A DNA stretch of 41,641 bases from Diploschistes diacapsis (taxonomy: Eukaryota). The stretch covers positions 1 to 41,641 of the forward strand of contig JALAIB010000046.1 in NCBI GenBank assembly GCA_023645945.1. Direction: 5' to 3'. Made by a program: the position numbers and the translations under genes. Below, one piece after another: positions 3,696-35,050 of this stretch (position 1 is the stretch's first letter; the number at the start of each line of letters is the position of its first letter). Below the pieces are notes generated by a model, which made no database searches, was not told the origin of the DNA, and worked only from the letters and a program-made list of their open reading frames with translations.

Positions 3696-4379
3696 CGCAG
3701 CGCTCGAGCCACTTCCTGACCCAGAGGACCCGGATGAAGAAGATCCGGGGGACATGATCGAACAATATCAGCCCAGCCAAGACACCGTGAGAAAGTATGA
3801 GATTGAAGTGAAACTCGATCTCCTCGATGAGCCTCTGGGGACGGAGTTGTGAAGAGAGTAAGCGACTTATCAAGGCTTGCTCTTTAAACGGTCTCTGATC
3901 TCGATCTGATATACCAACTGTAAGAAAACGAATGAAGGGGGCGTAGAAGTCGACATGTGTATCTTCCAGCAAGCCACGGCAAGTAAAAAGCACAAGAAAA
4001 GTATGCAATGACACCCATCTTCTACGCCACGCACGGCAGTAAGAGATATATATATTTTCAGCCCCGATGATAGGCACATCGCGATTGGTTGTTGTCGAAT
4101 GTCCGAGCTTATCCCTTCGCTTACCGCCCAGCTTTGAGACATAAGTTGTTTGCTTATTATGCACATCCAGTTACTGTCTGAACTCATCACTTCATTTTCT
4201 TTCGTTCTAATAAAGGCTTTGGCTTTCTAGGCGTGTCCACTGACCGTTGCACTGCCTTTTGACGGTAGCATACGTCTTCGAACCTCGGATAAGCGGAGAA
4301 TAGGCTTAACGTCCCAGGAGGTGCGACATCCTGCTCAACTTTTATTCTTCGGATTGAGCGAAGCAAAATTCCGTTCAGC

Positions 4380-6335: not shown

Positions 6336-6698
6336 CTAGTGGTCAAAGCGGAGCCTTTTCTCAGTCCGAGTCAATTAAACTGGACTTGTGAATGATGTCC
6401 TCCACGACTGTGCCATGCGGCATATTATGAAATCGCCTGAAGATACCGTACACACTCTTTTAAACGAAGATTCATAGATAAATATGCATTTGAAGGTTTT
6501 AAGAAAGGGGACTGGGCTATTGTGCGGGCTACTCGTTTTCCTAGATCGGAGATCGTGAGTGAAAACAAGAGCTCTCTTTAACACGGTATTGCTAAACAAT
6601 GAGAGCTTCTCACAACTTGGCTTACAATCCCCGTGCTGCACGATGCTCGTTCGCAGAGCACGCACATACATTTGTATAGTTTAGACTTAAGATCAGTA

Positions 6699-6836
6699 CG
6701 AGCTGCAGCAGCCAATCTCTCCCTCCGCCCCACCATGCCTTTCAATGCCATCGGTCACATCCTCCAAGAAGGCACGCTCTTCGCCATCCTATACCTCACC
6801 ATCCTCCTCCTTGCACCTGACCTGGCTGCCCTCCCT
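6699..6836 (+). repeat. Diverged duplicate of the 5'UTR and first ~30 codons of the SDR gene (other copy at 10073-10210)
   Basis: cgagctgcagcagccaa..ctccctccgcc.caccatgcct... occurs at both sites. Translations: MPFNAIGHILQEGTLFAILYLT (ATG 6735) versus MPLHAIGHIIREGSLSAIPYLT (ATG 10110). Confidence 0.9.
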
Positions 6837-7094
6837 CGATCACGCGCCAGGCTCAAAAAGCTTGAGTAGCCCGGGGATGAGGCGACTATGGGAAAGAACA
6901 GAGTCCACTGAGTTGGAGCTACTAACCATTGTCTACTAGGGGTTTCACTATCTATACAAGCTTTACTAGTTCCTTCCGCAATGCATCCCATCGTCACATC
7001 TGTATGAAATACTAACTGCTATAGTCAAGGTATCTTGCGAGCATCGGCGGGTAGAATCAGCGACGGTTCTTAAGTTATCGATCGAACTCTTCCA

Positions 7095-9882: not shown

Positions 9883-10109
9883 CTCTCTTGTGCCTACATA
9901 ATCCGGCTTTTGAGTCGAAAACTTGAGTAAGTCTGTTCGATCAAGATCAAGGTTGGTTTGCTTAACGTTACTGGGATGTACTTTGTCTTCACTCGATGAC
10001 TAAGCATAAAGCTCGCCAATGAAATCCGACGCCATCCCAATAGCATTGTAGACATTGACTGCGAAGCTCTACGCGAGCTGCAGCAGCCAACTTCTCCCTC
10101 CGCCTCACC

Positions 10110-11497
10110 ATGCCTCTACATGCCATCGGCCACATCATCCGAGAAGGCAGCCTCTCCGCCATCCCATATCTGACGACAATTCTCCGCACCCTCCCCTGGC
10201 TCGCCTTCCTCGCCCTTCTCAAATGGTATTTCTCCGGCCGGCGCAACAAGTCCGAGCGACTGATGCGCTCCAAAGTCATCATGATAACTGTACAGCCCCC
10301 CGCCCAGTCCATTAGTCCTCCGCTCTCTCCCTATTCCCAAGCATTTCCACCAACAAGAACCCCCCCACTAAACCCTCCTCTCTCCTCTAGGGCGGCACAT
10401 CCGGCATCGGCGCCTCCCTCACTCACTCCCTCGCCGCACGGGGCGCACAGCTCATCCTGCTCACCTCGCAGCCGCCCAGCGACCCCTTTGTGGCAGACTA
10501 CATCGCCGACCTGCGCAGCTCAACGGGCAACGCCCTGATCTGGGCCGAGCACGTCGACCTGTCCTCGCTGCACAGCATCCGCCTCTTCGCCACCAAATGG
10601 ATCGACAACGCCCCGCCGCGCCGCCTGGACATGCTCGTGCTCTGTGCCGCCACCATGACGCCGCGCTTCGCGCCCGGCCCGATCCCCACGGCCGACGGCC
10701 TCGAGCCGTGCTGGGGCGTCAACTATCTCGCCAACTTCCACCTCCTCTCGATACTGAGTCCCGCGCTGCGCGCCCAGCCGGCGGACAGGGACGTCAGGGT
10801 CGTGTTCGCGACGTGCGGCGCCTATGTGGGTGGTGATGTGAGGGGCATGCGGGACGCCAAGGCGCCGCTGCCGCGGGGCCGCGAGTACGCGACGAGTAAG
10901 CTGGCGCTGATGGTGTTTGCACGGGCCTTCCAGCGGCATCTGGACGCCTACGTGCGGCCGGACAAGCAGCCGAATAATGCGCGCGTGGTGCTGGTTGATC
11001 CGGGCTTGTGCCGGACCGCGGGGATGAGGAGGTGGTTGAGCGGTGGGGGGTTGTTGGGGCTGTTGGTATATTTGGTGCTGTGGCCGCTGTGGTGGTTGGG
11101 TTTGAAGAGTGCGGAGATGGGGGCCGAGGGGTTTTTGTATGCGGCGATGGAGGCCGAACTGGGGAAGGGGGAGGGGGGCAGGTTGGTGAGGGAGTGCAGG
11201 GAGGTGCGGTGCACGAAGGCCGAGGTGGGGGATGAGAGGGTTGAGGAGGAGCTGTGGAAGTTTAGCGAGGGGCAGATTAAGGCGTTGGAGAAGGAGGGGG
11301 CGGTTAAGAGGGCGTTGGCGAAGAAGAAGGGGGAGCAGGAGACGATGAAGGGGAACGAGGAACAGGTTGGGAAGGTGCTGGGGGAGGTTCATGAGACAGC
11401 GACCAATAGGACGGAGGAGAAAGGGACTAACGGGGCAGTGGTCACAGGGAAAGAGCAAAGAGACAAAGGATCAAGAAGAAGTAGGAAGGCACGCTGA
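10110..11497 (+). CDS. Short-chain dehydrogenase/reductase, PBR1/YNL181W-like; exons 10110-10289 and 10391-11497
   Basis: Splicing restores the Rossmann motif VIMITGGTSGIGA. Other conserved segments: VDLSSLHSIRLFATKWIDNAPPRRLDM, NYLANFHLLSILSPALRAQP and YxxxK (YATSK). Frame intact. Confidence 0.9.
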
Positions 11498-11771
11498 GTT
11501 GACGTATAATTAAGCTGCATAGCGTGGCGTTTGAGGAATACTCTACGTAGCAGACCCGGACTACTAAACAAAGCAAGAATCTGGGAATCGATAACTGGGG
11601 GTTTTATTTGAGGGAGGCTTGGGCGGCCCCTTTGCATGCTCCGATGAGCTTTAATGTATATAACATAACTTTTGGTGGACTTGTGCAAAGTCATGAAAGG
11701 CTTGCAGCATCTATGTTGAAGCTCACGCAATCATGCCCACAACCAGCCAACTTGATCACCTCCAACCCACA

Positions 11772-12612
11772 CTACTTTCCTCCAGCAAGCGCATACTCAA
11801 CTGCCGCCCTAGCGACAATATCATGCACTTTCACCTCCTCCTCGTTCCTGGGCGCGTAAACCATAACAAAATTTGCTGGAAGAAGCTTTTTCAGTCCAAA
11901 CATGACCTGCCCACTGAGTGGATGCCTAATACCCCAGCCGCGGTCAAGAAGCAGCCTGGCATCAGCCGGCGAGAGGGTAGTATGGGCGCTGCCGTCGTAA
12001 TCATGGAAATGGTAGAGTTCAGCCTTATCCGGACCGTCAGAGCTGGAGGAGGCGATGGCGGAAGTCCGGATCCACAGGGCGTCACACCCACCACCCTCTT
12101 GCGCAGAGGGGGCTCGGAGGCAGGCGGAGGGGTAGGCGGAGACGGTGGATGCTATAAGGGAGTCGAGGGTCTGGGAGCGGTTAGCTGCTGTGTGTACAAG
12201 AATAGAATAAGGGGCTATGGCATGCCTTGACTTCTTTTCGCGCCGCGTGGCTACTAATCTGACGGACGGGAACGCACCACTTGGAAATGACAGGGGCGAT
12301 ACCGGCTCGGATGGGAAGTTCTTCTGAAAAGTAACTCCTAGATTTGATGGAATCGGTCATCATCTTGAGGTAGAGACTCGTACCAAGGCGGTCAGGGGAG
12401 CTCTGAGTGTCTGCTATTAGAGCCATCATGTAACCATATAAATTAGAAGGGACGCCGCCGGCTTCTATGTCGAGCCACGCTGCATAGTCTTTGGACACCC
12501 ATCGAGTTAAGAAGACTGTAAGAGCAGTTGCGCCTGCAGTGTAAGGATGGTCCGCCACGAAGCTTCGCAGGAGCTTGGTCTGATTCTCGAGGTTTTGCAA
12601 TAAGAGAGCCAT
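11772..12612 (-). CDS. Fungal luciferase-family (Luz-like) domain protein, 261 aa; exons 12612-12226 and 12170-11772 with a GC-AG intron
   Basis: Exon 1 has DYAAWLDIEAGGVPSN and LPIRAGIAPVISKWCVPVRQ. Exon 2 has ELYHFHDYDGSAHTTLSPADA, GWGIRHPLSG and FVMVYAPRNEEE. The 55-nt intron AAG|GCATGC...GCTAAC...CAG joins the exons in frame. Confidence 0.85.
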
Positions 12613-13340
12613 GGTAGATTCGTTCGTAAGTTTGGAGATATCAACGTTTTTGTAGGCTTGAAGGCAGATGTGAGAATGGGCACTTTTTCCAAATTATATC
12701 CAGAATCTTTGTATCTACTCGACGCTATCTACAAGCACCGCACAATGCAGCGTCGTATCTCGGCAGGCACTAACTAGAAAACCGACCCTTTCTGTTCTGG
12801 TGCTGATGATGCTAAGAGGTAAATTCTTGAAGGATAGAATGGCTTTAGAGGCCGGCTTTCATAGCGACCATGTCACCTGCAATCATTCTTTTCTAGAACG
12901 AAACCGAGTCATGTTGCACAGGCCTGGCTGGCTGGGAACGATGCCGTGATTCCCGGGTTACTACCGTTCGAACTATGTTCGGATGTTTTGCTCATGAAGC
13001 CCAATGAACTCGCAACATGAGTCGAGAGCTCGAGAATCTATATCAAGGACGACAAGCAAAGATTATAACACAGTAGATTCGAACAGTCCTTTACATAGCA
13101 ATGCACTACAGAGGTTAGTGATTCAAAAAAGCGTAGCACCTTGTAGAGAAGACCGAAAACCTCGGCTGGCGACGGCATAATCCGCTTACTCACGCATTCG
13201 GTAATGACGATTAAAACGGTCACCGTTATCCTGTACAACGTTCATCTCTATTCATTTCACGACAACCCAGGCATGCTTCAATCGGCTAGAAGATTTAAAA
13301 CCTCGCTTCAAATCGACAGTGTCGCTCTGAGCTAGGTGGA

Positions 13341-14540
13341 ATGCCACCTCGCTTCCAGAACGATGCTCCACCTTTGTCAAACACTAGAGCATTGTGGGAG
13401 ATGGAGGTGGAGCAAAGGGCGAGACATGAGCGCGCAAACAGGGAGGAGGATCGGACGAAACAGAAGAAGAACAAACAGAGCATCGATTATGCGATGAGAA
13501 CTGGCATAGCTGGGGGACTAGCCGGTTGCGCCGTAAGTAACTTCTAGCATGAGCACGGAAGAAGTGTCAGCTGCTAACTTGCCAAACAGGCCAAAACCCT
13601 CGTTGGCCCCCTCGACCGCGTCAAGATCCTCTTCCAGGCTTCAAATCCACAATTCGCAAAGTACAGTGGATCATGGACGGGCCTGATAGCTGCAATGCGG
13701 CAGATAAACCAGCAAGACGGTCTGCGCGGGCTCTTCCGTGGTCACTCCGCGACGCTGCTGCGCATCTTCCCCTACGCCGGCATCAAATTTCTTGCCTACG
13801 AGCAGTTTCGGGCTATCATCATCACGGACCCAGCACGAGAGACACCTCTGCGCCGTCTGCTGAGCGGCTCCTTGGCCGGCGTGACCTCCGTCTTCTTCAC
13901 CTACCCGCTCGAGATTATCCGAGTACGTCTCGCCTTCGAAACCCGAGGCGACACAAAAGCTAGCTTCAGCCGGATATGCGACCAGATATACCACGAGCGC
14001 CCACCAAAGCCCCACACTTCTGCCACCACAGCATCCTCGGCGCCCCTCGTAGCCGCTGCGACACAGACCCTCGAGAAAGCAACCCCCCGCTCCGGCCTTG
14101 CCAACTTCTACCGCGGCTTCTCGCCCACGGTCGTCGGCATGCTGCCGTACGCGGGTATGTCGTTTCTAACGCACGACACGGTGGGCGACTGGCTTCGTGG
14201 TCCCTCGCTCGCACCCTACACCACAATTCCGGAAAAGCAGCATTCTTCCTCACGTCCTCGCCTCAACAACCCTGCTCAACTCACGGCGGGCGCGTTGGCC
14301 GGCCTCGTCTCGCAGACAGCGTCCTACCCCCTCGAAGTGATCCGGCGGCGCATGCAAGTCAGCGGTGCAGCGGGAGACGGTAAGATGCTGAGTATGCGGG
14401 AGACGGCTGCGCGGATCTTGGCGGAGAGAGGCGTTGGCGGCTTTTTCGTTGGGCTGGGGATCGGGTATTTGAAGGTCATGCCCATGGTGGCCGTGAGCTT
14501 TTGGGTGTATGAGAGGGCGAAGGGGTGGCTTGGGATATAG
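13341..14540 (+). CDS. LEU5: Mitochondrial carrier, coenzyme A transporter; exons 13341-13532 and 13590-14540
   Basis: Three carrier repeats with Px[DE]xx[KR] signatures (PLDRVK, PLEIIRVR, PLEVIRRR). LEU5-typical segments GIAGGLAGCAAKT, ILFQASNPQFAKY and GHSATLLRIFPYAGIKFLAYEQ. Confidence 0.9.
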
Positions 14541-14819
14541 GCATTCTGCTGCATGGCGTTGGGGCGGGGGGGACCTTTGAGCTGTTTGTGACACATGGTA
14601 GAGAGAGCGATGCTGTTCGCTGCGACGGCGGCTGCATCAATTATTTTTCCAGAGCAATTTGTTTGCACCACGCGGACAGCAATCTACATAAACAGAGGCT
14701 CGAGTTTCTCTGATGTTGTATTTTTGGCTTGAAAACGTACTATGATGTTCCGCTATACAATTGGCGCAACTACAAAAGCTTGCAAATAGAGTGTGCTCTG
14801 ATAGAATCGACGAACGAGT

Positions 14820-19283: not shown

Positions 19284-20432
19284 ATGACCGGCCTTTCCGA
19301 GGCCATTGGTTTCGGACTCGCAGTCGCGGGTAGCATAGATTTAGCCCCAAAGTATGGGCAGCAGCTCTCGAAGCGGATATCGGAGTTGAAAAGAAGCACC
19401 GAGCTGACGCGCCATCTACGAGCGTTCGAAATAGAGCCCGAGAGGCGGTTGTTGGCGTCTCGCCTCGAGCGCGGCCGTGCCATCTGCAATGATCCCCATG
19501 CCGATCCTGCCATCAAGGAGGAACTGGATCGCACGTTCGTGGAGATGGGCAACTTGGTATATCAGATTGGTAAAGTCTCGTCGAGGAGTGGCTACTTCGC
19601 GGTAGAAACTTGGCCGTATACCGCACGGAACAGGGCTCACTTAGAAGGCGATATCAAATATCTCGCTCAACTTCTGATATTCCCAGGGGTTTGGTCTACC
19701 AAACGACGCTGCAGAGCTTGCTGGGAGAACCTGCGCTGTCGCTTGACGTTCGCATTGATGTATGCAACCAGCTTGCCGAGGCGGTGCTCCACATCCATCA
19801 GCTGAGATTGGTGCACAAGAACTTCAGTGCTGCAAACACCATCATTATGCAAAATCCTCTAACTCAGTCTGGTTCCAATGGCGCGGGGGTTGATTTCGGT
19901 GTATGTGACGAATTGGAGACTTGCCAGGATCGCCAGCGCAGCAACGAAGATGGCCGATGAAAACTCGTGGTGGAAGGGGATCTACTTGCATCCCAAGCGG
20001 CAGGTCCATCTAGGAAAAGACAAGTATAATATGGGTCATGATATCTATAGCCTGGGGGTCTGCATGTTCGAAGTCCTCCTCTCTCATCCCCTTGTACAAT
20101 TCACTACTGGCAACACAGGGATCTCATCGGAGTTCAAGAGGCGCGCTGATGCTTTGGGAGTTACGGACAGAAACCGTGCAATTGCGCTACAGGGAATATC
20201 GAAGCCAGAGATCTATACACTTGATAAATCAGCAGTACAGGATGTTTTGATAAGCTTAGCGACCACAGAGCTTCCCGTGGCCGTGGGTACGAGACTAACC
20301 GATCTCGTAGTGTCGTGCCTTTGTTGCCTTGAAGGGGGTTCGAGGGGATATCATTTGCGGGTAAATGATGTCGAGGTTGGCATGAGCTTTATTCATTTGA
20401 TCAAAACCACGTTGAGACAGGTGTCTTTGTAG
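19284..20432 (+). pseudogene. HeLo-like N-terminal domain plus kinase-like (pseudokinase) domain; frameshifted, probably with an internal deletion
   Basis: N-terminal helix MTGLSEAIGFGLAVAGSIDLAPKYGQQL. Kinase C-lobe in two further ORFs: LSLDVRIDVCNQLAEAVLHIHQLRLVHKNFSAANTI, then VYVTNWRLAR...IYLHPKRQ...YNMGHDIYSLGVCMFEV. HRD is replaced by HKN and DFG by NWR. No N-lobe is recognisable. Confidence 0.75.
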
Positions 20433-20699
20433 GGTATCTCTGCACAGTTGTCGCTGGTAAAATGGGCCGCTTCGATTCAATCTCACTAGCTTCTTACACC
20501 ATCTCAAATGCCGGTCCTTCCAGGCAAATGTATACTGGATACGCCGTTCAGAGTAATTATAGGCAGAAATTGCTCTTTACAACTTAGTGTTGAGTGCTGT
20601 TGATGGACATCTGGAGTTAATTCGGTATCGGAGAAGCGGCTTGGTTTTCTTAATCAATCTTCCCCATCGGCCAAGGTTCGGTCTCTCTGCTTTTCGCTT

Positions 20700-23600
20700 A
20701 ACGAGTGTTAGCGAAGCGTCCAAGTGCTCTTCCTGTCTCACCAGGTGACGCTTTTCCTGGATGTCTACGTTTGCTCAGCAAGCCAGGCCGCCAGTGCTTG
20801 ATGTCCGTTTGCTCTCGCGTATTGCTCTGGCGTAAAGCCTTCCTTATCAGTCGCCGGGCTGTCCGCTCCACCTGCAAGTAGTAATAGAATGATGTCTTTA
20901 CGATTGTGCGCTGCAGCCCGTTGTAAAGGTGTAGCATCCTCGCAGTCGCTGATATCGCACCGAACCTGGGGTTGATGAGCAACTGCACTATGGCTTTGTG
21001 GTCCATGTCGGCGGCAATGTGGATGGATGTGTATCCTTGATCGTTTTTTGTCGTGGTTAGGATCTCGTCGCTCAGAAGGACCTCACATATTGCGACTTGG
21101 TTAGCTGAAACGGCCCAATGTAGCGGCGTCGATGAGTCGGCGTCGTTAGAGATCAAGTCCATCCCAAGCTTTATACAAGCTTGCACAATCTCTTTCGAGC
21201 CTTTCAATACAAGCAATATAAAGGACAGTGACTCTCTAAGTATTTCCAAGAAGAAGACTGTCGTCCTCGGTTTCGAGTATGAGGTTCTTTGCTCGCTGAT
21301 GGTAACCAAGGATGAACGTAGCTATTACCGAGTTCCACACGCGATTGCCCTTCACCGTTAGCGGCTCACTGCTCTCTCCATCATGAATGAGTTTCCTGAA
21401 CGCGATCTATCATTTCGTGGATTTTTTCTTTTGTCGTCAGGAAATAAGAGTCGATAACCCTATCTAGCGATTTAATGATCGCTCGAAAGAGAAGCCTGCC
21501 TTCGGTTGCGGAGCTATGCAGGAATTTTAAAGCCCCAGCTTGGTAGCCAAGCTTGTCCAGCTGCATGCCAGCCTCTTCAAGAATGCTGAGACTGCACGGA
21601 CGATCGCCTGGGTTATCTTCGGTCATGCGGCGTGATAGCAGCTGATCGAATTGAGCATCTTTGAAATCATAATTCAAGTCGTTCATTGTTGCTTACAACG
21701 TGAGTCACGGCTGCTCATATGTGGCTCTAATGCTTACTCCGAGGCTGTAGATATCCTTTGATTGTTGCAGCTTCTCCCTCGTTGATTCCTAGGCTTGTCA
21801 ATCTCATTTATCCCCACGTGGAATCATCAAAGCTGACCGGCGCCCCGTTCCAACATGAGTAGTATGATACGCTTTCAGACGTTTCCAGGTCTTAGCTAGG
21901 CCTAAATCACAAAACTTTGCGACTCGAACCCCAGAATTGCATCCATTGAGGACGACTACACGGTTAGTAGATTCAGGCTGCTGTTGTACTCACCATTGGC
22001 AGGTTTGATATCTCGATGCAATATTGTGGTCCAGTTGTGCTTCAGGAAATAAGAGTTCTCTTCGTTCTTATCCAACCCATGGTGGCAGTATGTAAGATCT
22101 GAAGCGAGATCCCATAGCAGCTTCCATGTCTCGAACGCCTTTAGGTTATATGAATATCCAATGACTTGCAATATTCTACAAGATCTTCTCCGCAGCAGTA
22201 CTCAGTATAGATGATGCACGAAATCGCTTGCAATCTCTGGTTGTTCTTCATATTTAAGATATTGTACAGTGCTCTAGTTGAGATTTTGAGGAGCTCATAT
22301 TCCTGCACGAGCCGTTTTTGATGCTAGTCGATTACTCCTCTGTTACGTGCTAGCAAGGAAAACGTCATCTTAATGACGTCCTCATAGTTCTCCTATATCA
22401 ATCTGGTTAGCGAGAACATCTTCTGAAGAAGCGCTGAATCATTATCCGCTAATAGAAACAGTAGCTGTTTGGGGAGATACAGGTGCAATGTGAACTCAAT
22501 GATGTGAGGTTGCAATTATTTCTCCGTGGCAGCAGAGCCTTGCGGCTTGCATTGTGCTACTCTCTGAAGGAGATTTGAAATCAAACACCATGGTGTACGA
22601 AAGAAGGGAAGCCACAACAGCGACCAGATGAAGCTGAAAGAAAAGCGGTTGCTGTAAATAGAACGCTTGTGGCTGTGTCCCATAATATCAAAGGTAAAGC
22701 GGTCTCGTTCTGTATCCCTTGCGGGAGCGACTTGATCGGGTTAAAGAGTAACCTAAATGCTTCTGTGCTATCCTTTTGATGAAAAACACTAATGAATTGT
22801 GCTTGCACTCCCGGCCAAGATCCTCTGAAAGCTCCTCATCTCGCTCAACATTCTTCGGATCGATCTTCTCAATACTATCCAAAGCTATTTGGGCCTGGGT
22901 TTTTCGAGCGTCATTCATCACATCCAGTCTTGCATCTTTGTCAATCAAATATCTGGCTGCAGCTTGCCGGTGCCGTTCTCAGGCCAGGTGTAGTGGAGTT
23001 GACTGCTGAGAGTCAACGGCGATGATGTTAGCTCCTTTCTCCGCCAGCAAAATGACAGTATCGAGGTGACCATTCCAAGCCGCAACAGCAAGTGGAGTCC
23101 GGCCATAGCTGCCGTCTCGCATATCAAATTTAGCACCTTTTTCCAGAAGGATATTAAGGATACCGATATCTCCGTGGGCTGCTGCGCGGTGCAGAGCTGT
23201 GCGCCCCCATCCCCGCTTGGCATCGATGTGAGCACCACGGTCAATGAGTCTCTTGATGATGGCTTCATGCTTCTCGAACGTTGCCGCTTGTAATGCAATA
23301 TCGAAGGTGCCGCCCAGGATATTCAGATGAACTTTTGGATCCTTATGGTTCAAAAGGAATTCTACTATGGACTTGCGGCCTCCGTAAGGAGCTGCTTGTA
23401 ATGCTGTGCAATACTGCCCTGGCTGAGCGTTGATATTTGCACCCCAAGCCAGTAATAGCTGCACGACGTTAAGATGATCATTTAAAGCCACAGTCTGCAA
23501 GGGAGTCCCGTACAGTTCGCTTTCTGGATCGGAATCATCTGAGTACACAAGCAGTTCACGGCAGGCTTCAATCGAACCAAAGACAGCGACAATATGCAGA

Positions 23601-24898
23601 CCCCTCACGTCCCTTGGATAGCCCTGACTATATCCGGGATATAAGATGTCTGGTTTATGCATGATCTGCACGATTTTTCCAAGTTGCACCTCATTTCGAA
23701 GCCGTCTTACAATTAGTCTGGATATGAGATGGAGTAGATCGATTCACATGCCGAGGCTAGTATCTTGCGGCATAATCTAGAAACGGATTACCCTTCACAC
23801 GTTCCTTAAGATCTGTATCGTTTGAGCATGGTCTAAAGGAGAATGCGTCCTGGTATGCTAGGCAGGTCAAACATTTTTTAAGAATACGATTGCTGGCGTT
23901 CGGAAATAGATCTACTGATGTTGCTCAAGATACTACTGCGCAGAGTAATGCACCAATCGAACAGTCTCGTGTGACCCATTGATCAATAATAGAGGACTAC
24001 ATATGTTGATCATTGCTTCATCGCCATAGCTGCAATAAATAAAAGCCAAGGCGCCTTGTATCTGGCCTTGTTCAATGCCAGTTTTGAATGTTGCTAATGA
24101 CTTTTGAAGCAAGTACTGTCTTGCCATATCCCGGCGAACCAGTACACCAGAGCACTCTGGAGTCCTTTCTGAGCCAAGATTGGTACTGCGGGCTTTCTAG
24201 GAGCCAGGGGCCGGTTTCGAGGCTGCACTCACCATATATATCATTTTGTCGAAATTGGAAGTCCAAATGAAAGAGCCATCCTGCAATCTGGTCTTTCACA
24301 CTTTCTAATACACAATTTTAGCATATCTCAAACAGCGCCTGCTGGCGGGGCTACTTACCAGAGCTATTCTTGAAAGTCTCTTCCAGAGGAGTCCGGGATT
24401 CTTGACGAAGCTGGGTCACGAGCGTTGAAAGACGCTGATTGAGCTGTGCTTTCTTCGCGTTCAGTTGATGCTTATCTCCGGCCTCGGACTCAGTTGCTCC
24501 CAACACAAGCAATAAATGGAAACGGACAACTCCAAGCATCTGACCTAGAATTCTGTTTCCAGAGAATAGTTTTGACGATTTCATACGACGCTGAGGCTGT
24601 ACCGACAATTGAATCGTTCTTTTTATGCCCGCAAGCACCAGTTCGAGGCACGACAAGGCTGGTAGCAGTTGCTCCACTCGACCCCGAGTCCGCCACGAGG
24701 CTCATCGCTTCACATCCGCAAGGTGTGTAAATTATTCCAAACGGCTTTGAGCTCGTTTGATTCATCAGACAAGGCTTTCAAACCAGGATCTGGCCTTCCA
24801 TTGGGGATGGAAGCTTGGTACTCTTGTATGGACTCTGTAATCTCGTTTACCAAGACGGTTCGTGCCAGAATAGGTGCAGCTATATTGAGTGGATCCAT
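20700..24898 (-). pseudogene. NLR-type gene: N-terminal helical (SesA/HeLo-like) domain - NACHT - ankyrin repeats - Ser/Thr kinase - ankyrin repeats; decayed
   Basis: Start MDPLNIAAPILA (ATG 24898). NACHT entry WL..LDF..RQ..TGPWLLES..YQSW..LWCTGSPGYGKT (~24120). Post-NACHT TCLAY...PFLDYAA. About six ankyrin repeats (22979-23600). Kinase motifs IYTEYC, ILHRDIKPAN (~22010), KFCDLGLAK and DIYSLG. Further ankyrins TPLHWAV, TSIHIAAD and TPLQRAAA (20770-21200). Many stops and frameshifts; most of the NACHT core appears deleted. Confidence 0.8.
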
Positions 24899-25649
24899 TG
24901 AATAAGTATTAAACTTCAAGGGAATAAACTAATTCTGTACCATAGTGCAGATATTCTCGACAACCCCGCAACCAAAGAAGCTTCGAGAGCCAGCTTTTAG
25001 CTAGCCTTATATCGCTAGGAACACATTGTTCCGTCATCCTCAGCATTTGAAGCATAACCAAGCTTGGTAATCTTACCGGCATCGGGATAGGTATCACCCT
25101 GATAGTTTATGCAAAGGGCTGAAACCTAGGCAGCCCCTGTCTCCAGAAGTATTGCCTATACTGTATAACGTTTATTAAGCCACAACGTTTCCGAATATAG
25201 AAATTAATTCAAATTGCTGGATTTAGCGGAGTTAAGTTTTACTTTTCAGATTTAAGTGTGATATTACAAAGCGCCAGTTTAGTACCGCTAGGCCACATAG
25301 CCAAAAGACCAACAATACTGGATTCTGCCAGTATTGAACTAAACTGATATATATAGCGAAACCACATAAGTAAGCATTTTTTAACCAAGCTTTGCTATTT
25401 AAATGCATTTATCTGAATGTTGCGAAACCGCGCTCCTTCTTTATTATACCTGAAAGAAGTGGATGGTTAGCTTTATGTTCTTCTCGTTTTTCTCGAACAC
25501 CCCTGTACCTTTTGTTCCTGCCGCAAGCTAAAAGGAGCTTCCCGGACCCCATACTTCTTGCATCCTTTTCAAGAAAGCGAAATTAGGGATTGGCTGCATT
25601 CGTTTAGTCGTCATTGATTCCGTACATATAGATTACGTTGGCATTCCAA

Positions 25650-28600
25650 TTCGCTCTTAAGAGCTCCAAGTTACTTAGAGGCCTGAATTATTCGAAGCTA
25701 AAGAGACTGCTTCCATAGCATTTTAGTGCCCAAGGCTAGACTCCCCCTCTGTATCATCTCCCTCTTCTACCGTACCTGTATCTTCATCTAGCATCAGAAC
25801 ATACTTTCCCGTACTCCAATACTCACAGCACTTCTCCTCCATGACTCCGAAGAAGCTTTTGTTCTTTCGATGAAAGCTTGAACACTCTCCTTATCGTAGA
25901 GTCAGATCGTAGTCCCAAAAGTTTTCGTGGCTTCCTCAATCCATCTTGTGCTTGGGTCGACAATCCTGAACTGTTCATGTATGGTTGCTGCGTCAGTCCA
26001 TCCCTTACATTCAACCAAAGTGTCGGAAATTTCGCCTGGGCCCAGTTTCTGGGTCCCTGCGGCCAAAATATAGAAGAATTCCTACGTATTCCATGAAGTC
26101 CTGGAGGAAAGAATCTAGGTATCCTTCGAATATCCCTCACGTTCATCCTCTTCGTCCCAAAAGACGTCTGTTCCTATGCTCCCGACCTCTATTTCTTCTG
26201 TATTACACGATCGCCAAGAACCGCCCTTCTCCAGATTATTTTGCAGTCCTCGGTATTGTCCAAAAGTCATCACAGACATTTTTATTTATTGATTATTAAT
26301 ACTCTTCTTTATCTGCCCATGCGTTTCTCGCCTTCCGCAACCGGCTTGGGAGTCCTCATTAGTACTGTCTAAGAATGCAATGTTTAGCAACGGCGTAACT
26401 CTTTTCGATTATTTGTCTCTGCTGGCGACTATCTAGATCATGATCGTAATGTCCATCTTGTTCTGTTAGCAGCCAGCCGCAGCATCCTGAATGTCCTTTC
26501 TCATCGACCGTTGGTGCCAGTATTAACGATGCTCTTCCTAATGTGAAAACCTTTTGGAAACATGCAGCAAGGGCATGGGTTATTTGAGATAGGATTATTT
26601 TAATTCCTAGTAGACCGCTTCATTTGTTAGCTTGTCCAGTCTCTGATCTGCTGCTAACACGTCACGTCACATCCTGTCCCAATATCTTCTGAAGCTTGTT
26701 CAACGTCTAAGTAAGCTAGATACTGGGGTCAGGTTTCCTAGCATCGGGCTTGAGCAAGGAAAACTTCAAAGTACCTGAAGTTTTTTGATCTCGGCAATAT
26801 CCAAGATCAGCACTCCTGGAATCTCCCTCTGGGTGCGTCATGCCGGAGTCCTAGTTTGATCTATTCCTGAAGTACTAAGAGCCCATAATCATTCCAATAT
26901 TTCTCACAGTAGAGCTTTTACGGAAATGTCACACCTTTCATACAGCCCCCACAAAAGTCTACCTTTTAGAGTCACTTTCTGGAGGAAATGTAAAGTTCTG
27001 AGGGTCGACCATGAACATTTCAAGATTATGCTGTCAACAATGCTCTCCCTCTGTTCGCTATGTTGCAGAAAAGGCTCGACTATCGGCCCTAACAACTTTC
27101 ACGCTATCTTGGCTTGGACCCTGCAGAATTGTGTTTTCCTGTATATGACCTGGGCATCGGGCTTCTGAAGGTAAGATCCAGATAGTTCCATAACTGAAGA
27201 TACGTTCAGGAGATGGATAGAGGTCTTAGCTCAGAGGTAAGGTTGATGCACGGCATAGTTGGTCAGCGGCCATCTTTCATATTTAAGCACGAATATCCAA
27301 ACAGGCGGAAATTCCACATCGGACCTGGACTTTAGCGTTCTGTGACTCAACGGTAGCTTTTCTCTAGGCCGGAACGACTGGATTGACCTGGGTTCGAAAT
27401 CAGCGTCATCTTGTACTTCAACAATCAATAAGAACGATCGGAGGATGTTGGCCAAAGTGGGACGATCGGGATCCTCCGAGAAGACACCATCCACCTGTGA
27501 GAGGTTTAAACCGCTAGACTCGCAGGAACAGCAGATCCACACCTTGGAGCAGAAGCTCCAGACGTTAGCGGAGCAAGATGATGAGTAACTGCCTTTTTAA
27601 TATCTGCCGGGTGGGAGATCAGCATGAAAGCCACAACCGGAATATCCTCGGTGTGTGTGTGTGCGTGAGAATATTCTATTAACAACCGCCTATTGGGTGT
27701 CTGCAAACCCTTGCTCGGTAGTAGTTTTGGAGTCCGATCCCAAAGCTCAATCTTATTGAGGAGTACCAATCTAGGGCCAAGTCAAGAAGGTCAAACAAGC
27801 CCGCCAAGAGCCGCACAAGCTGGACTCAGGTGGTTGCCCTTTTCACTTTCTTTTCTTTTCTTCAGTAATTCGTTCTAATATGGTCCTGTCCTGCGTATCG
27901 CCGTCCTGCTTGTCGTATTTTACCCTTTTACACAATCTGTAGAAGTTTGTTATAACAGTCACCTCAACTAGAAATTCCGGCAATTGCATTGAAAAAAATA
28001 CCTCATTATATGTCGATGGTGGGAAAGTCCTGTTGAGCTCCGGCTAAGAACCCCTTGGTAGGTTCAGCTCGCGAATGTTGCAAAATCCACAAGTGCCTAT
28101 CCTAACCGCATCTTGATTTGAGGAGAAAAGTTACCGGAGCTCGTTTTCTCCGTTTCGTAGACCAAAGCTCTCCCTCAAGTCCTATGCGCCTTGTCCTTGT
28201 GGTATCTTGACTTTATTTCTTCAGATTGTTGAATCATGCCTGTCAACTGCAAGCGGATCTTTTAAGTATTCTCAAGCTTTCGTCCTGAAATGGATATGTC
28301 ATTAAGGACCCACGCTTCCAATTCTCCCAAAACCAGCCGCTTTTTATGTTAACTTTCTGTGCTCTCGTTTAAGTCGAACCTGTTGGATCATCAGGCATGG
28401 ACTGAAGAATCTAAACCTCTGGCGCTGTTTAAGACCCTTGCGATAGATCTAAAGAGATTTTATCAGTTTAGGTGCAGTTATAGAGGGACAGAAAATTTAT
28501 CTCTGTATCCTCTTCGGCTATTGCCATCTTTCATTCCTTGAGATGCTTTGTGATTCCATCATAATCAAGCAACAGCGGCGTTGCGCGAACCTCGGCTTGA

Positions 28601-31600
28601 GTGCAAACTTCTAAATGAGAAGCCCATAGCTTTAAATTCCGGAAGTTCTATAACACCTCGCCTGAGCTGCGTAATGACGCTATTTTGCACTGTACAGGGG
28701 TGTCCCTAAGTCCTCTTTCCATAAGTTGTATATCGCGTCTAAGTTGCCTGGCCATACTGATAGGCCATGAGCATCTGTGATCATTTATCCCGCGAATATC
28801 TGGGTGCATTATTAGATCCCTGAAGTCAGATGGTACTCAAGAACGTTCTTTCTATTCCGAATTCCATCGCTCAGAAGCTTGAGCCTTTTAGGATCAGTGA
28901 GTTCGGGTTAACAAGACGCCTAAATCAGTCTCAAGTAGCTTTGTCCTAATTGCTGTTTTTAGTGAATCTTAATCTGATCTCCCTAGTAACCAATGTCTAA
29001 TTCCTCAATATACTATCCATAAGTAGTACTCAGGAAGTAGTCATTCATTTTCTGTACGACATACTAGGTTCGCCCTGCTCCTGTCTGTCTCAGCTATCCA
29101 GGATTTTCCTGCCGCTCTGTTTTGGATCTCTTGGGCAGTGTTCCAGACCCTATCCTTTCTTCCATTACGATTGATAAAGTATGGTTGACTTGTAAGATTC
29201 GTTATCACCAGAAACAGGCGCAATGCTCTATCTAATTTCACTCTCCTTGTTTCTTTTCTGTTGATGAAGCGTTACCAATATAGAGACGATCTTTTGTTTT
29301 CTCGTCAACAATCAAGACGCTGTGGGGATTTTCCAGCGTGGCTCCCTGGAGCGATATTTCAACAAATAGTCCAATAGTACCCAAGAAGATCACGATACTT
29401 CAGCCTCAAAATCAGGTACTTCTTCTGCTCCTCTTGTATCAAAAGTTCAGTTGGCCTCACAGGTCCATAGAACATATACTGATCCTATAGAGATTTGCAC
29501 GTTCCGTGGCACTCCCGGCATATTATTGTTTAGGTTTATTGCGTCCCTGTGTAGAAGGTCTGGATTCTCTTCCTATAAACTTCCTTGTGTCGTTCAAACC
29601 CATCTATTGCAAGTATCACCGGCTTTGATCCTGAGATCATCGTTTGTTCGCTTTGCTCAGGCTCCATCGGAACTTCGTAGCCAGCCATGTGGCCCAGTCT
29701 TGTATCGGGTTGACAGCCAGATCCTATTTCCACTTCGCGTTGAGACAGCTGTTTTACTTCGGCCGAATATGTGATCGTGAGTCGAGACCGAGGTTTATGC
29801 CTCGGCCAAAAAAAAAGTCACGATCATCCAGTTCAAACCCTTTTCTGGGCCTCGTAAGGGCCATAAAGGTTACAAAATTGAGCGATACTATTAGTTTCTG
29901 CTGACCTAGATGAGTTCAGCCAATTCAAGATCTTCACGAAATACTATTAGATTCGTCCGAGTCTTTTGAAAAGCTCACAGATATTATAGACATATATCAT
30001 GCGGGAAAGAGATCGTCAAAAGGGCTCCTGTATTGAACGTCTCCTAGAACCTTTTGAAAGTCACATTACCCTGTTGAAGAACAACTAGCTTTTTGCAGCT
30101 ATGCGCACTCAGGCCTAATCCTGCTTTCTGATTGCCTATCGTGAGTATTTGAACCCTTCTTAAGTCCAATATGTCCTTTGAAGTATCTCTCCATCGAATG
30201 TCCACCCCGTTTTCTTTACACTGGTTGTGAGGGAAGGTCTTTATGTCAAAAGCGTTCTGTCTTGGCATACAAGCTCGGCTTGTAGTTTTATCTCGATCCA
30301 TTTCCTGTATGAGTAAATCGTTATTTTTACACGACGATATCATGCAGTCGCCCTGATCAGGAGGCTCTAGAGATCCGGAGATGACCGTTTAATTCTCCTG
30401 ATACCGATATAACATGGCCTTGTAGCTCTTGCATTGCGGGCTTGATATGGCTTGGCAACCTTGCGGGCTGCAGCACGACCTAGAACTCTTTAAGACCGAG
30501 TTTGTTCAGACTACTACCTTTCTTCCCAAAGACATCGGCTTGGGTTAGTATGCCCATGAGCCGCAGGTGCAATACAAGTAAATTATCTTTCCCTGTCCCT
30601 AGACATCGCCTTTTATGAGCTAATTAGCTTTGCCCTCTTTGCAGGTCTTTCCTCCTGTCCCTCTCTTGGCGTACGAGAAGCAGAGCCCTGTGGGTAAACG
30701 AGCCTGTCTACAATGGGCGACGACGTATGCATCGCGGTGGCAACAGGCGTCTCGAAACGCCGCGCAGTGATAGGACGTTCGTAAGGGCGCTCCCGAGTCT
30801 GCAACGACTTGGCAATAGATTTCAAGCTGCTGGATATGTCCTCTTGGATTTCAAGCATGACCTGGCCTTATTTCTTTCAGGTTCTATCATGCTCCGGAAT
30901 ATAGGGTTAAAATAACCCGTTCAAGTACTTTAGTATATGCCCTTTCCCAAGCTCTTCTAGTTGAGTTATGAAGTCAATCGAGTATTCGCGCCATCTTCCT
31001 CATTTAGGGTCTCATCACGATATGGTTTCAATGCTGGCTCTAACTCAATTTCTTTCATCTAGATCGGGATGGCAGCTACTAAACGGCAATACTGAAAGGG
31101 CTAGGGGAGAGCCTCGCAATGTGTCATCGGAACGCTGCAACCTTTGTCTCTCCAGTGGTCGTGGTGGTCGCAGGCTTGACAGAGGAAGTGGAGGTGGGAT
31201 GGCTTCCTTTTTCTGCAACATTCTCTTCATTTTCCACCTCACCTTCCTATGAAGGTAGAATATCAGAAGTTGTGGCCTTAGTAACTGAGAGCAGGCCATC
31301 GGAGTACCTACAAACGATCTGTGTACCGATTGACTTCTTGTGCTCTCTGAACTAGCTGGATGCGTATAATTAATTCCTCTTGGCGGCTGTTTATCGACTT
31401 TCCTTATTTGAACATCCTACCATACCATCTAGTGCATGGAGCTAGTATAAGGACCCATATAATATTGGTCTTCGTTCAGTACTTCTAAATTTTCTGCTCC
31501 ACCCTAGTTCCTCTCCCAGGTGCACTGTTTCCTTTATTCTCTTTATCCGCATCTTGATTCCAGCTGGTTGTGAAGCTACTCCCTGTGGGTGTCCGCCTAT

Positions 31601-34600
31601 CTGATCCCAATCATTCACTCGCTTCTTGTTCTCATATTATACTGACGACGCTGCAACACCTCTCAATATGCTTCAATATTCTTCAGTTGTGCAAGGCTTG
31701 GTGTCCCCTGTCTTGCAAAGTCTGCGGCTTGAGTATTAAACTTCTGGAATCCGGCAACACTTTTTCCTACTAGAGTCAACCCAATTCTTACACCAGAAAT
31801 CGTCCATGACGGCCCTACAGAGGCTAAGGTGTCCTATTGAGCTCCATCGTGCCTTAAAAGATCCCTCAGACTCAGACGTAAACTTGTGTAACCCTGTAAC
31901 CTGCGGCATTCGTTCCACATCTCGACCTACTCCTGCGACCTTTCACTATTTTCCTCGACGAAGACCACCCCAGCTGCGTTGAAGCCAGTACATCACCAGC
32001 ATAACGAACTCGTTAGTTCAGCGAGGGCTAAGAACGCTGAATCTGCAGTGAAAATCGTGAAGCTTTATCACAAGGTCCTGTGTAAATCTGATTATCTAGT
32101 GCGCGAAGTATACATCCTTGGCTTTCAGGAGTGCTTGACTCAATCTAGGAGCGCACGCGGAGAGGCTCTGAATTTGTTACATGCTAGCTTGACTATCAGC
32201 AACTGCAGTCCTGGGTTCCCAACAACTTGGAACGTGTGCTTTCCACTGTTCCAGGCTTCTCCTCAACTATTTCACTGCATGTCGACTCTTCGGGATATGA
32301 TCCAAAATGCAAGAACCTTCTCTCTTCCTGATGGAGAGACCTGTTGGTTACATTGCGAGTCTTATTACCCATCTAACCGGTAACGCCTAGGATCTAGTCA
32401 ACTGGCTCGTGGAACGCACATCACTATATGGTGGGTATTTCCCTTTCTGATTTGTTTGAGTCTTTGTTTCGTTATACCAGTTGTCTTGGCTTATGGTAGC
32501 TGTGGTTTCCAAACGCCGTGGATGCTGAAAAAGGAGATATGAAAAGTGTCCGGTAGATGCAGTTTTCCAATTTTAAGACGGTAGAAGCGTTGGAGCGCAT
32601 TGCGAGTCTTTCTCAGATGGATCCAAACCTACCATCAAGCCATGTGCGTTGATCCATCCTTTACTTCCAGGTACCTCGCATGGTCACTGTAGTCTATCTA
32701 GAGAAATCCCCCTTCCCTGGAACGTTGCGTCCAGTACTTGAGTACATTCAAGCTTATTATCGCTTGTTAACCAAGTTCCGATATTGTACCTGGAAGTCAA
32801 TCTCGACGAATCCAAAATCTGCCGCAAATTCTAAACATATCGTATCGACCAGCAAGATAAGTAGAGATATTCTCCCAATTCGCCACTTGTTCGAGCTTTC
32901 TGTGTTGTAGTAGCAATATTATGCAACGTCTGTCAGTCTTGAATGTTCTGCCTGTTTTTCTCTTTGAAGGTTCTGCCTGTTTTACTCGAGCTAGAATCGC
33001 TCGTACTTAGAATTAAGACGCCGTCAAATTCAAGGCACTTATAGCAACCGCATGGCCTAGGATCTGCCAAGATTATGCAGTATGTTGTACCGTTGCGCCC
33101 TAATTGCGACTTACCAAAGTTGCAATGTCTGTCGCTAATCCTATAGATTTATTGGAACATTTCTCCATATATACTCCGCTGTACCGATGATACTCAGGTA
33201 GATGTGGTACCCAGTGCCGAAGAGAGGTATCGGAGTAAAATCTGGTTGATCAGTTCAACCTCACTGTGCTTGACCAACTGTTTCCCTTACAATCTCGTTG
33301 GTATGACTCGGCCCGCTGACCAGGCTAGCCGGATCACCTGAAACAGATCAGTTGACTCTGACTCAGAAGACATCCTCAAGCGTTGTCTAAAAAGAAGCCA
33401 AACTATGTTATTAAGCATGTTGTAGCGGTTAAGGCGTTGGCCGTGGAGGTTGGCGCCGAGACTTAATATCTGGTTTAGCGTTTCCAACAACTCCGAGAAG
33501 CTTAGGCAAAAGAGGCCGGATTATCAAATCGGCAACAAGATAAACCTGCTTTTTTCTATGTACAATGGAAACCAAAACACTAATAAAGGCCGGTTCTCTG
33601 AACGCTTGCGAGGTCGCTGATGCTCTCATTGAGCTTCTGGTAGTCGAGATGGCCCTTCGGACTAGGCAGAGTTGTGGCGATCCTGGTAAGCTTTTATAAA
33701 CCTTTCTGTGGCAATTCCATATGTGTATACACCCTTTCCAGACAGTACACAAAGAAAATATCCAGGGCTAAATATGCATCAAGGTACTGGCTAGTGTGTT
33801 CGTTCTGCTCGCTAGTACCCCTATTCTAGTGTGTTCACCTTGCTCTTGGCTATGACTGGTAGTTCGTGCGTTTCAAGGCTGGGACGCCCACAGAGGCCCT
33901 CAAACTACCTTTCTAATTGTAGCGCAGAAGATAGATTCCTGATTCTGTAAGCTGATGGATCACTATTTTAAATCCACCGAGAGAACTCCGAGTCCTCCAA
34001 CGATTTGTAACCTTGTAGTCCCTCCAGTGTTTGACACTATGGCTAGACCTCCCATAGTAGCATGTAAAACGTTCAAACACCTAGATAAAATATCTCAATG
34101 TCAGATTCCTGTATTTGGATCCATTTATATACTGCTTTCAAGGTTCTTCAGTCCCAATGTTGTTCAATTTTAGGGTAGCTTGAATTGCCGTTCTAGCTCC
34201 TACACTATCTCGGAGTCCTCCAGAGTGTCATCCGTTCTAACTTGTTTCAATATGCTAGTCCAGTTCGAGTTTTGCGCCTTTGCTTTTGTCAATTAGAGGA
34301 CCAAGATAAGCAAAGAGCTTTAAAGAACGGGAACCAACTATTTACCACGCCGAGCATGGCCTGCAGTTTCCTGTATGCAGATATAGAATGATGCCTTGGG
34401 TATTGTGCTTGGCTAGCAAAGGTCACCTGTTGGTTCCGTTGAAGTCCTAAATTCCCGAATGATGGCTAAGCATTGAAGCCTGATCTCTATTGCATAAGGG
34501 TAGACGTCCTGGTCTGAGCTCACTTTGTACAGTGAGGGACAATTTTAACCCTTTTGAGCTTATCCCTTGGCGCAAGGCTATGTAGTGCTCTTCAAACCCC

Positions 34601-34700
34601 TTTGAGGCTTTTGCCACCCACTCCTTAAAGTAGGCATCTCTGGTGCTTGGATTGAAGATCTGCACCTGCTCTCTCATCACAGCTGGATCAGTCCAGCGAC
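25650..34700 (-). pseudogene. Long tract of decayed, unidentified minus-strand coding sequence (one or several genes)
   Basis: Long - strand frames broken only by scattered TAA/TAG/TGA. ORFs 27231-27542 and 26904-27095 share one frame; similar frames at ~32400-32910 and ~33930-34290. No family motif recognised. Confidence 0.45.
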
Positions 34701-34779
34701 GACGTCCTACTAATGCATCCGAAATAGCTCCCAGACCAGTAATCTGTGTGGCTCCTGCAAAAGCGTACGGAATACCTCC

Positions 34780-35050
34780 ATGCCGTCTACGGATGCAAGG
34801 CCAGAATTACCTCCAGTACAGACCCAGAATGTTTTGACTCCGGCTACGAGCATGGGTATTCCTCCTTATTGGCATCCAGCCCCTGAGCCAGGCACAACGG
34901 GAGCTCCTTTCTTTACTGGTAGGGATGTGTCCAAGTTCGTTACCCAATGGGAAGGGTTTTGTAGGAAGTACCTTATGACGGCAGAAGAGTTCTTTGTCCG
35001 CTTGACTGACTACAGTGAGGAGTCCATTGGTGTACTAATTGAAGCTTCCA
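34780..35050 (+). mobile_element. Probable N-terminal gag fragment of a fungal LTR retrotransposon
   Basis: PEPGTTGAPFFTGRDVSKFVTQWEGFCRKY...RLTDY...IG resembles the PxPGxxGAPxFxGxNVTxFLxxYxxxC start of fungal Gypsy-like gag proteins. No pol or LTR pair found. Confidence 0.5.

Follow-up and report, generated by a model that had tools for sequence, protein, structure and literature searches.

To our knowledge, the NOD-like receptors (NLRs) of fungi signal to their executioners by amyloid templating or by direct fusion. In the NWD2/HET-S and PNT1/HELLP systems, an NLR gene adjoins a gene for a helical-bundle executioner, and receptor and executioner share a homologous module, the amyloid motif. 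In the RIPK3–MLKL system, an active kinase works under an upstream sensor complex, and the executioner is a helical bundle joined to a pseudokinase without catalytic Asp or DFG motif. Here we describe a locus on a 41,641-bp contig from a metagenome-assembled genome of the lichen-forming fungus Diploschistes diacapsis (the whole contig was analysed and is called the window below), where a gene for a helical bundle fused to a pseudokinase (19284–20432, plus strand) lies tail to tail with a gene for an NLR that carries a kinase (20765–24898, minus strand). We somewhat favour the reading that these are the decayed remnants of a two-gene module, conserved among fungi, that follows the logic of RIPK3–MLKL and has no amyloid relay.

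The pair resembles NWD2/HET-S and PNT1/HELLP in the adjacency of its genes and in the module that its two proteins share, here a kinase fold; it differs in that the relay would run from kinase to pseudokinase and in that its N-terminal domain is not matched by the HeLo and HeLo-like families of Pfam. General Pfam scans, which included no dedicated search for amyloid motifs, found neither the HET-s prion domain nor any other Pfam amyloid family in proteins of the pseudokinase family or in P0108, the closest homologue found for the NLR. With RIPK3–MLKL the pair shares the combination of an active-looking kinase under a sensor and a bundle–pseudokinase protein, a Ser or Thr in the pseudokinase activation segment as a likely switch, and the model-level alignments given below. 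Unlike that system, it shows no sequence-level relation to MLKL or RIPK3, its kinase is nearest in sequence to NEK2 and not to the RIP kinases, that kinase is fused directly to an NLR or a lectin whereas RIPK3 is recruited through the RHIM amyloid, and its two genes are physically linked.

Fungal death pathways are often clusters of two or three genes, according to passages of a 2025 review (PMC12881547), and a figure legend there notes that some HELL domains sit in proteins with a kinase or pseudokinase domain, reminiscent of MLKL. The plus-strand gene family has that general architecture, although it is not HeLo-like by Pfam and the passages of the review name no activating kinase and no gene neighbour. 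Kinases within NLRs are also on record: passages of PMC4986451 list PKinase among the N-terminal domain classes of fungal NLRs, and parts of PMC12258605 place it C-terminally in nine of 12 kinase-bearing NLRs of the Sordariales, where it is CHK2/PRD-4-like and is read as a decoy. The kinase described here differs from the latter in belonging to a family with an insert after a CHHG motif (the CHHG-insert family), in having NEK2 as its closest solved relative and in being consistently paired with a pseudokinase gene. The pair itself was not described in the full-text literature searched, which included passages of PMC12881547, PMC9815663, PMC12258605, PMC10197012 and PMC4986451 and had subscription journals and supplements outside its scope, and the conserved pairing appears to be new.

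Conserved pairing across fungal lineages

A scan of JGI metagenome contigs with an alignment of the plus-strand gene family returned 188 relatives, of which the best 80 were taken with flanks of up to 10 kb (the loci with L numbers). Neighbours were called by tblastn with NACHT, ankyrin-repeat (ANK) and kinase pieces, by Pfam on adjoining open reading frames (ORFs) and by motif scans, and adjacency was counted by lineage, each lineage being a cluster at 95% identity. Intact genes in the convergent arrangement of the window are present at L001, L002, L003, L005 and L009, where the pseudokinase gene is followed by an opposite-strand NACHT-ANK-kinase-ANK gene and the opposing reading frames end about 60–190 bp apart. 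The N-terminal domain of these convergent NLRs varies, being PNP_UDP_1 in L005 and giving a sub-threshold PigL_N/HeLo-like match in L001.

A kinase gene adjoins the pseudokinase gene in another arrangement in 11 further lineages. The same kinase family lies upstream and head to head at L006, L010 (grouped with L012 and L013), L020, L052, L055, L059, L061, L062 and L064 (grouped with L066 and L069). The kinase is followed by DUF7779 and TPR at L020 and L064, giving an NB-ARC-type NLR with an N-terminal kinase, and by NACHT at L062. Lectins are the fusion partners of the head-to-head kinases at L010 (5569–6766, minus strand; fungal fucose lectin) and, again upstream of the bundle–pseudokinase gene, at L011 (3527–5164, minus strand; fruit-body lectin, FB_lectin), and because these lectins bind sugars, glycans may be triggers. 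L074 shows a third arrangement, with a gene for two kinase domains directly downstream on the strand of the pseudokinase gene (11822–14775, plus strand); the catalytic loop reads NLD in the first domain and HKD in the second.

A tree of 66 non-redundant family members separates two clades with a Shimodaira–Hasegawa-like approximate likelihood ratio test (SH-aLRT) support of 100. The 18 database relatives of the window gene all fall in clade A, together with every convergent locus and almost every divergent one; clade B has just the pseudokinase part in common with it. An adjacent kinase gene was found in 16 of the 19 informative lineages of clade A and in 2 of the 15 of clade B (Fisher p = 7e-5), leaving 3 and 13 informative lineages without one; flanks were too short to be informative in a further 3 and 23. 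A strict count, with at least 2.5 kb on both flanks, gave 7 of 10 versus 1 of 14 (p = 0.002). All three clade A lineages that lack a partner have damaged pseudokinase genes, with two in-frame stops at L051, a frameshift and two stops at L075 and about 160 N-terminal residues missing at L056. Proximity is seen with a general catalytic-loop pattern as well: the 80 loci, roughly 800 kb in all, contain 26 matches to it, of which 23 are no more than 2.6 kb from the pseudokinase gene and the other three all belong to one lineage. Adjacency spans lineages that are only 25–35% identical, two orientations and four sensor fusions. Judged from these comparisons, the gene pairing is conserved and not incidental. 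That one kinase family, with four kinds of sensor and in two orientations, always stands beside the pseudokinase gene indicates that kinase and pseudokinase form the constant functional unit and that the sensor is exchangeable.

Among database proteins, P0003 (a homologue of the plus-strand gene, 61% identical) and P0108 each come from an ENA contig of 13,537 bp, and from the equal size we infer that both lie on one contig. Three clade B loci (L023, L042, L043) have an ordinary Pkinase gene upstream that lacks the CHHG hallmark; it was not counted as a member of the partner family.

The surroundings of some loci hold other genes of interest. Past the partner kinase of L006 lies an ORF of 539 residues (6357–7973, minus strand) that has no match in Pfam and contains repeated units rich in Cys and His (FYCSD-NCPYS...GHIRSYH), and next comes a WD40 ORF (3789–5219); the Cys/His-rich ORF may be another type of sensor. 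Close to the module at L020 is an ORF with a Pfam HET match (2771–4678, minus strand), and L056 has one with a HET-like motif recognised by eye (4415–6286, minus strand), which suggests islands of genes for non-self recognition and death.

Pseudokinase and partner kinase families

A search with the C-terminal piece of the plus-strand gene found 18 database proteins of about 500 residues; P0001 heads them with 76% identity, and those with a named source belong to Lignoscripta atroalba, Fusarium decemcellulare and Cudoniella acicularis. Pfam gives proteins of the family a weak Pkinase/PK_Tyr match and nothing in the first 200 residues, where a hydrophobic N-terminal helix is conserved with the consensus GLxLAxPGxIDL. 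The family alignment has an invariant VHK at the position of the kinase HRD, NW-L-R at that of DFG (W326 nearly invariant, R330 invariant), an invariant Y-MGHD-YSLG within YNMGHDIYSLG, and an invariant Y-HP-R within Y-HP-R-Q, with Q355 nearly invariant. None of 32 clade A sequences has the catalytic Asp, the residue after VHK being N, S, A, G, H or R in its place, and the DFG position reads x-W, with W326 kept in 31 and R330 in all 32. The activation segment contains, ten residues past this Trp, the P0001 T336 column, which is Thr in 21 sequences and Ser in 11, hence one or the other in all 32. The pseudokinase part of clade B matches the uncharacterised Pfam family DUF7580 at L047 (9392–11080; 30.9 bits, above the cut-off) and L035 (9470–10921, plus strand; 23.8 bits, below it), so this family, going by the two matches, seems to cover this type of pseudokinase.

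The HRD fragment of the window kinase retrieved 74 proteins, mostly short ORFs of small contigs. Longer architectures are nonetheless present in several fungi: P0049 (Arthroderma uncinatum) and P0059 (Truncatella angustata) combine NPHP3_N, ANK and Pkinase; P0054 (F. decemcellulare) and P0066 (F. albosuccineum, named 'NACHT and Ankyrin domain') have ANK, Pkinase and a second ANK block, with no NACHT-type match listed by Pfam; P0040 (Rhizina undulata) is TPR-Pkinase-ANK; and at L002 and L003 ANK and Pkinase lie within one uninterrupted ORF. By these domain matches, the fusion of NLR and kinase is a real architecture. The partner kinases, that of the window included, carry the hallmark A-x-x-Y-C-H-H-G, an insert of 15–60 residues, and HRDIKPxN. 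HRD is kept in the window and in all clade A partners, and is accompanied by CDLG in the convergent kinases and GDFG in the divergent ones; in the window kinase (HRDIKPAN, CDLGLAK), DLG in place of DFG is a conservative change. Positions like the beta3 Lys and the alphaC Glu are visible in the partner kinase ORFs. Several introns are typical of these kinases, and the pair at L074 alone has an uninterrupted kinase domain. The closest match of P0020, which is 75% identical to the window kinase fragment, among PDB sequences was NEK2 (E 2.7e-7), followed by ULK, IKK-like kinases and NEK7.

Fold of the N-terminal helices

The full-length model of P0001 has a predicted local distance difference test (pLDDT) score of 81 and shows five helices followed by a kinase fold. 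Foldseek matched it mainly to kinase domains, with MLKL (4btf) at rank 36 giving the longest alignment (533 columns). A separate model of residues 1–152 is all helical (pLDDT 82), and VIA-align compared it with 48,161 chains, returning scores of a size that, as the tool warns, helical bundles reach by chance: Z 10.1 for IncA, 9.4 for the Sw-5b N-terminal domain, 9.3 for the coiled-coil (CC) domain of Rx, 7.6 for the RPW8-type CC domain (CC-R) of NRG1.1, 7.1 for residues 2–117 of MLKL 4btf, 7.0 for the CC domain of MLA13 and 6.8 for the MLKL N-terminal domain 6ux8. The best-covering matches are the Rx, NRG1.1 and MLA13 domains, and several members of the MLKL/CC/RPW8 group are among the first 32 chains; the top structural matches also include unrelated bundles (IncA, the FAT domain of FAK and designed proteins). 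In a protein atlas the two leading clusters were of the HeLo family (PF14479), at 0.89 and 0.88, which is below its line of 0.9 and serves as a lead only. The models thus describe a predicted helical bundle compatible with the MLKL/CC/HeLo group; what it has in common with plant MLKLs and with the CC and CC-R domains of NLRs is an executioner fold, a likeness at fold level whose scores do not decide the matter.

The two decayed genes of the window

The plus-strand gene runs from an ATG at 19284 to a TAG stop at 20430–20432 and is 76% identical to P0001 (497 residues) over the retained parts. Its translation comes in three pieces, on which Pfam reports weak kinase matches. Piecewise tblastn with P0001 places residues 1–88 on 19284–19547, a remnant of an N-terminal bundle of about 150 residues; residues 89–178 (about 90 codons) are missing in frame, and the deletion junction at 19545–19550 joins TFVEM to GNL. 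The N-lobe remnant of the pseudokinase (19545–19688) aligns with residues 179–226 up to about 19688 and is followed by the loss of residues ~227–250 (about 24 codons) and a frame change near 19680. Residues 251–318 align in the second frame, and after another frame change at 19879–19899 residues 321–497 align through the stop. HKN (19814–19822, within LVHKNF at 19808–19825) replaces the HRD of the catalytic loop, NWR (19911–19919) replaces DFG, and the activation-segment stretch ASAATKMAD (19932–19958) keeps the Thr of the T336 column. Because of its two deletions and two frame changes relative to P0001, the gene is a pseudogene; half of its N-terminal domain is gone, as is part of the kinase N-lobe.

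The minus-strand gene (20765–24898) was delineated by Pfam, three-frame translation and alignment to homologues as an NLR pseudogene with the order N-terminal helical region, NACHT, ANK, kinase, ANK. It starts with MDPLNIAAP (ATG at 24898), and the N-terminal region (24320–24898) has no significant Pfam match. The start of a NACHT/NPHP3_N domain follows (NPHP3_N, E 4e-15 on 24317–24072), with the Walker A motif GSPGYGKT at 24117–24140; a post-NACHT helical region lies between it and the ankyrin repeats. P0108, with 969 residues, an intact NACHT, winged-helix and ANK organisation and 59% identity over the ANK piece, shows what is missing: 258 codons (residues 287–544, from Walker B to the winged helix), comprising most of the NACHT domain, have gone at an internal-deletion junction at 24017–24021. 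A complete module for nucleotide binding and oligomerisation (NOD), with Walker B, winged helix and open frame, is present in P0108, L002, L003 and L005 and absent from the window copy. The first ANK block (22772–23743; Ank_2, E 1e-47 on 23743–22979) contains an in-frame stop at 22981–22979. The NLR part has at least three frame changes (~24080, ~23910 and ~23720) and further in-frame stops in the winged-helix region.

The kinase domain of the CHHG-insert type (21700–22356) retains YCHHGL (22090–22073), HRDIKPAN (22018–21995) and CDLGLAK (21911–21891) and is disrupted by further frame changes and at least six stops. One shift of frame in it is not a lesion: directly 3' of HRDIKPAN is a genuine short intron (21956–21993, GTGAGT..CTAAC..TAG), and related kinase ORFs are interrupted at the same spot. 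The second, C-terminal ANK block (20768–21321) ends at a stop codon at 20767–20765. Public annotation holds a 292-residue 'hypothetical protein' here (P0019), built with predicted introns from the kinase tail (21381–21692) and the second ANK block (20698–21321) on the minus strand, which is a fragment of the dead NLR-kinase pseudogene. The C-terminal tail of the kinase (21692–21381), tried as a way to longer proteins, matched P0019 alone.

A preliminary description of the locus from its sequence had seen two convergent genes about 300 bp apart, the NLR carrying a canonical-looking kinase and both copies being dead, and the analysis bears this out: the genes lie as it had placed them, 332 bp separate their 3' ends at 20432 and 20765, the Walker A motif, the ANK blocks and the two kinase motifs are in place, and each gene has lost codons and changes frame, with in-frame stops in the minus-strand gene. 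Because both genes of the window are pseudogenes, the module does nothing in this assembly of the lichen fungus.

Proposed mechanism and alternatives

The simplest and, by analogy with RIPK3–MLKL, best reading of the intact pairs is that a sensor would drive activation of the kinase, which would then phosphorylate its neighbour. The bundle–pseudokinase protein, with its hydrophobic first helix, would be the likely executioner. Its counterpart is an active-looking CHHG-insert kinase that is always fused to a sensor, which is a NACHT-ANK NLR in the window and an NB-ARC-TPR or NACHT NLR, or a lectin, elsewhere. Oligomerisation of the sensor on a ligand would gather the kinase domains and activate them; the kinase would bind the pseudokinase domain of the neighbour and phosphorylate the invariant Ser/Thr of its activation segment; and release of the N-terminal bundle would lead to attack on the membrane and death of the cell. 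On the broader scale, it is a fair prospect, though one that we stop short of favouring, that filamentous ascomycetes have a widespread, genomically linked, phosphorylation-driven pathway resembling necroptosis, with a dedicated kinase family, a pseudokinase executioner switched on through its invariant Ser/Thr, no amyloid relay, and interchangeable sensors, which would be lectins of two kinds and NLRs of the NACHT-ANK, NB-ARC-TPR and NACHT types.

Several observations weigh against this proposal. The convergent NLRs also bear ordinary effector domains at their own N termini, so the kinase is not their sole possible output. In F. decemcellulare the family member NM208_g1486 and the NLR-kinases NM208_g1376 and g2470 are not neighbours by locus tag; this family member belongs to a subclade whose partner at L011 is a lectin-kinase and not an NLR-kinase. 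The loci are metagenome contigs, the best 80 of 188, and some lineages may be close kin. A glycine-rich loop was not identified in the partner kinases, whose Pfam matches start at profile positions 21–42. The fold of the N-terminal domain adds further points: VIA-align scores of 7–10 can, for helical bundles, arise by chance; no Foldseek match to the model of residues 1–152 reached E<=0.001, with the executioner domain of MLKL (6zvo) fourth at E 0.16; HeLo (PF14479) and HeLo-like N (PF17111) of Pfam matched none of 13 family proteins (E<=1) or 19 locus ORFs (E<=0.01); and a profile search of the domain against PDB sequences found nothing meaningful, the best hit being a syntaxin at E 0.076. 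With structural scores in the chance range and no Pfam HeLo match, homology to the HeLo or four-helix-bundle domains is weakly supported. The preliminary description had seen a HeLo-like helix fused to a pseudokinase and had expected the domain to model as HeLo or as a four-helix bundle; the pseudokinase (HKN, NWR) and a helical bundle with MLKL and plant NLR coiled coils among its matches have held up, and the HeLo-like label has not gained comparable footing. Its comparison with RIPK3–MLKL is strengthened by the recurrent adjacency of related genes, which it had proposed to look for among orthologues (five intact convergent loci and 11 further lineages with a kinase neighbour), by the NLR-kinase architecture and by the helical-bundle model, with the mechanism itself inferred.

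The main rival, which we regard as unlikely, is a guard or decoy arrangement, in which the kinase would be a bait or the pseudokinase a guarded adaptor, and the NLR would sense modification of either by a pathogen effector and act through its own N-terminal domain. Parallels are the plant ZAR1–RKS1 pseudokinase and NLR integrated domains. The effector-type N-terminal domains of the convergent NLRs (PNP_UDP_1 in L005, the weak PigL_N match in L001) would suit such a role, as would the placement of the kinase after the ANK sensor repeats, which is unusual for a signalling domain; the C-terminal kinases of nine of 12 kinase-bearing Sordariales NLRs, proposed in parts of PMC12258605 to be integrated decoys of CHK2/PRD-4, count for it and against our proposal. 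However, the same kinase family stands N-terminally on NB-ARC-TPR and NACHT receptors, the usual position of an effector or signalling domain, and is also fused to lectins that have no NOD module, in both cases beside a pseudokinase gene. A decoy is likewise hard to square with partner kinases that retain HRD and D(F/L)G and with a neighbour whose bundle domain matches executioner-type domains, and in the comparison with PDB sequences it was NEK2 that came nearest to the embedded kinase.

Somewhat less probable again is a signalling pair that does not kill, with the pseudokinase regulating the sensor-kinase allosterically or scaffolding it, as STRAD does for LKB1, and the N-terminal helices as a regulatory or coiled-coil element and not a pore former. 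Kinase–pseudokinase pairs commonly work as allosteric pairs, and such a role would sit well with a domain whose HeLo or four-helix-bundle homology is not established and whose top structural matches include unrelated bundles such as IncA (Z 10.1), the FAK FAT domain and designed proteins. The sensors, by contrast, are NLRs and lectins, typical of fungal modules for non-self recognition and death, and the MLKL/CC/RPW8 members near the top of the 48,161 chains argue in the same direction. The conserved hydrophobic helix (GLxLAxPGxIDL) seems to resemble the membrane-inserting first helix of HeLo-type domains, and the repeated decay of the gene, in the window and at L051 and L075, would fit a costly immune or death gene. 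That the genes merely travel together in fast-evolving, NLR-rich islands, with no functional link, strikes us as very improbable. NLR and death-related genes do cluster in fungal genomes, HET-domain genes lie near L020 and L056, and the two F. decemcellulare genes are apart; but co-travel sits poorly with adjacency across such divergent lineages, orientations and sensor fusions, with the contrast between clades (16/19 versus 2/15 informative lineages), and with the placement of all but 3 of the 26 catalytic-loop motifs within 2.6 kb of the plus-strand gene's relatives.

A sensor-fused kinase that switches on a neighbouring bundle–pseudokinase protein would, if true, be a counterpart of RIPK3–MLKL in fungi and a third mode of fungal NLR signalling beside all-in-one receptors and amyloid-templated effectors. 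The pair offers a testable route of activation, since both the kinase and the likely phosphorylation site can be named, and it points to NLRs and sugar-binding lectins as natural sensors and hence to possible triggers. It also bears on whether death switching from kinase to pseudokinase predates animals or arose more than once.

Decay in related samples

Repeat-induced point mutation (RIP) was considered as the cause of decay and rejected: its indices are normal at the locus, which shows no RIP signature, and the window contains no second copy. The contig of a second assembler, probably from the source run and so not an independent sample, has no differences from the window. Two further runs, X2 and X3, have contigs that agree with it at 88–99% and carry many insertions and deletions of one base (12 listed and 23 more). 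Both are one base short at 19885, within the second frame change of the plus-strand gene, and some skip stretches of the window: 178 bases (20108–20287) and 275 bases (21942–22218) in X2, and 628 bases (23209–23838) in X3. None of the listed pieces of X2 and X3 bridges the deletion junction at 19547 of the plus-strand gene with 31 letters on each side. Given the many small lesions and skipped stretches, selection does not seem to act on the locus in several related samples. A dead copy in the window and further lesions in related samples are consistent with a rapid turnover by birth and death, as immune genes typically show.

Genomic setting of the locus

Elsewhere the window holds ordinary fungal genes, which by Pfam matches on ORFs also include a mitochondrial carrier and an ABC transporter. 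A cytochrome P450 ORF (5436–6332, plus strand) lies near one with carrier-protein and thioesterase domains, the tail of a polyketide synthase (7468–8328, minus strand), and together (5436–8328) they resemble part of a polyketide-type secondary-metabolite cluster. Further along are a short-chain dehydrogenase ORF (10391–11494, plus strand) and a 'luciferase domain' ORF (11775–12356, minus strand), within a stretch (10000–12700) that is rich in G+C (0.64 at 10–11 kb) and has a sharp reversal of GC skew and long ORFs overlapping on both strands. On the other side, the roughly 12 kb adjoining the dead NLR (25000–37000) contain four ORFs of at least 130 codons, none of which (0/4) has a Pfam match, and this stretch may be further decayed sequence.

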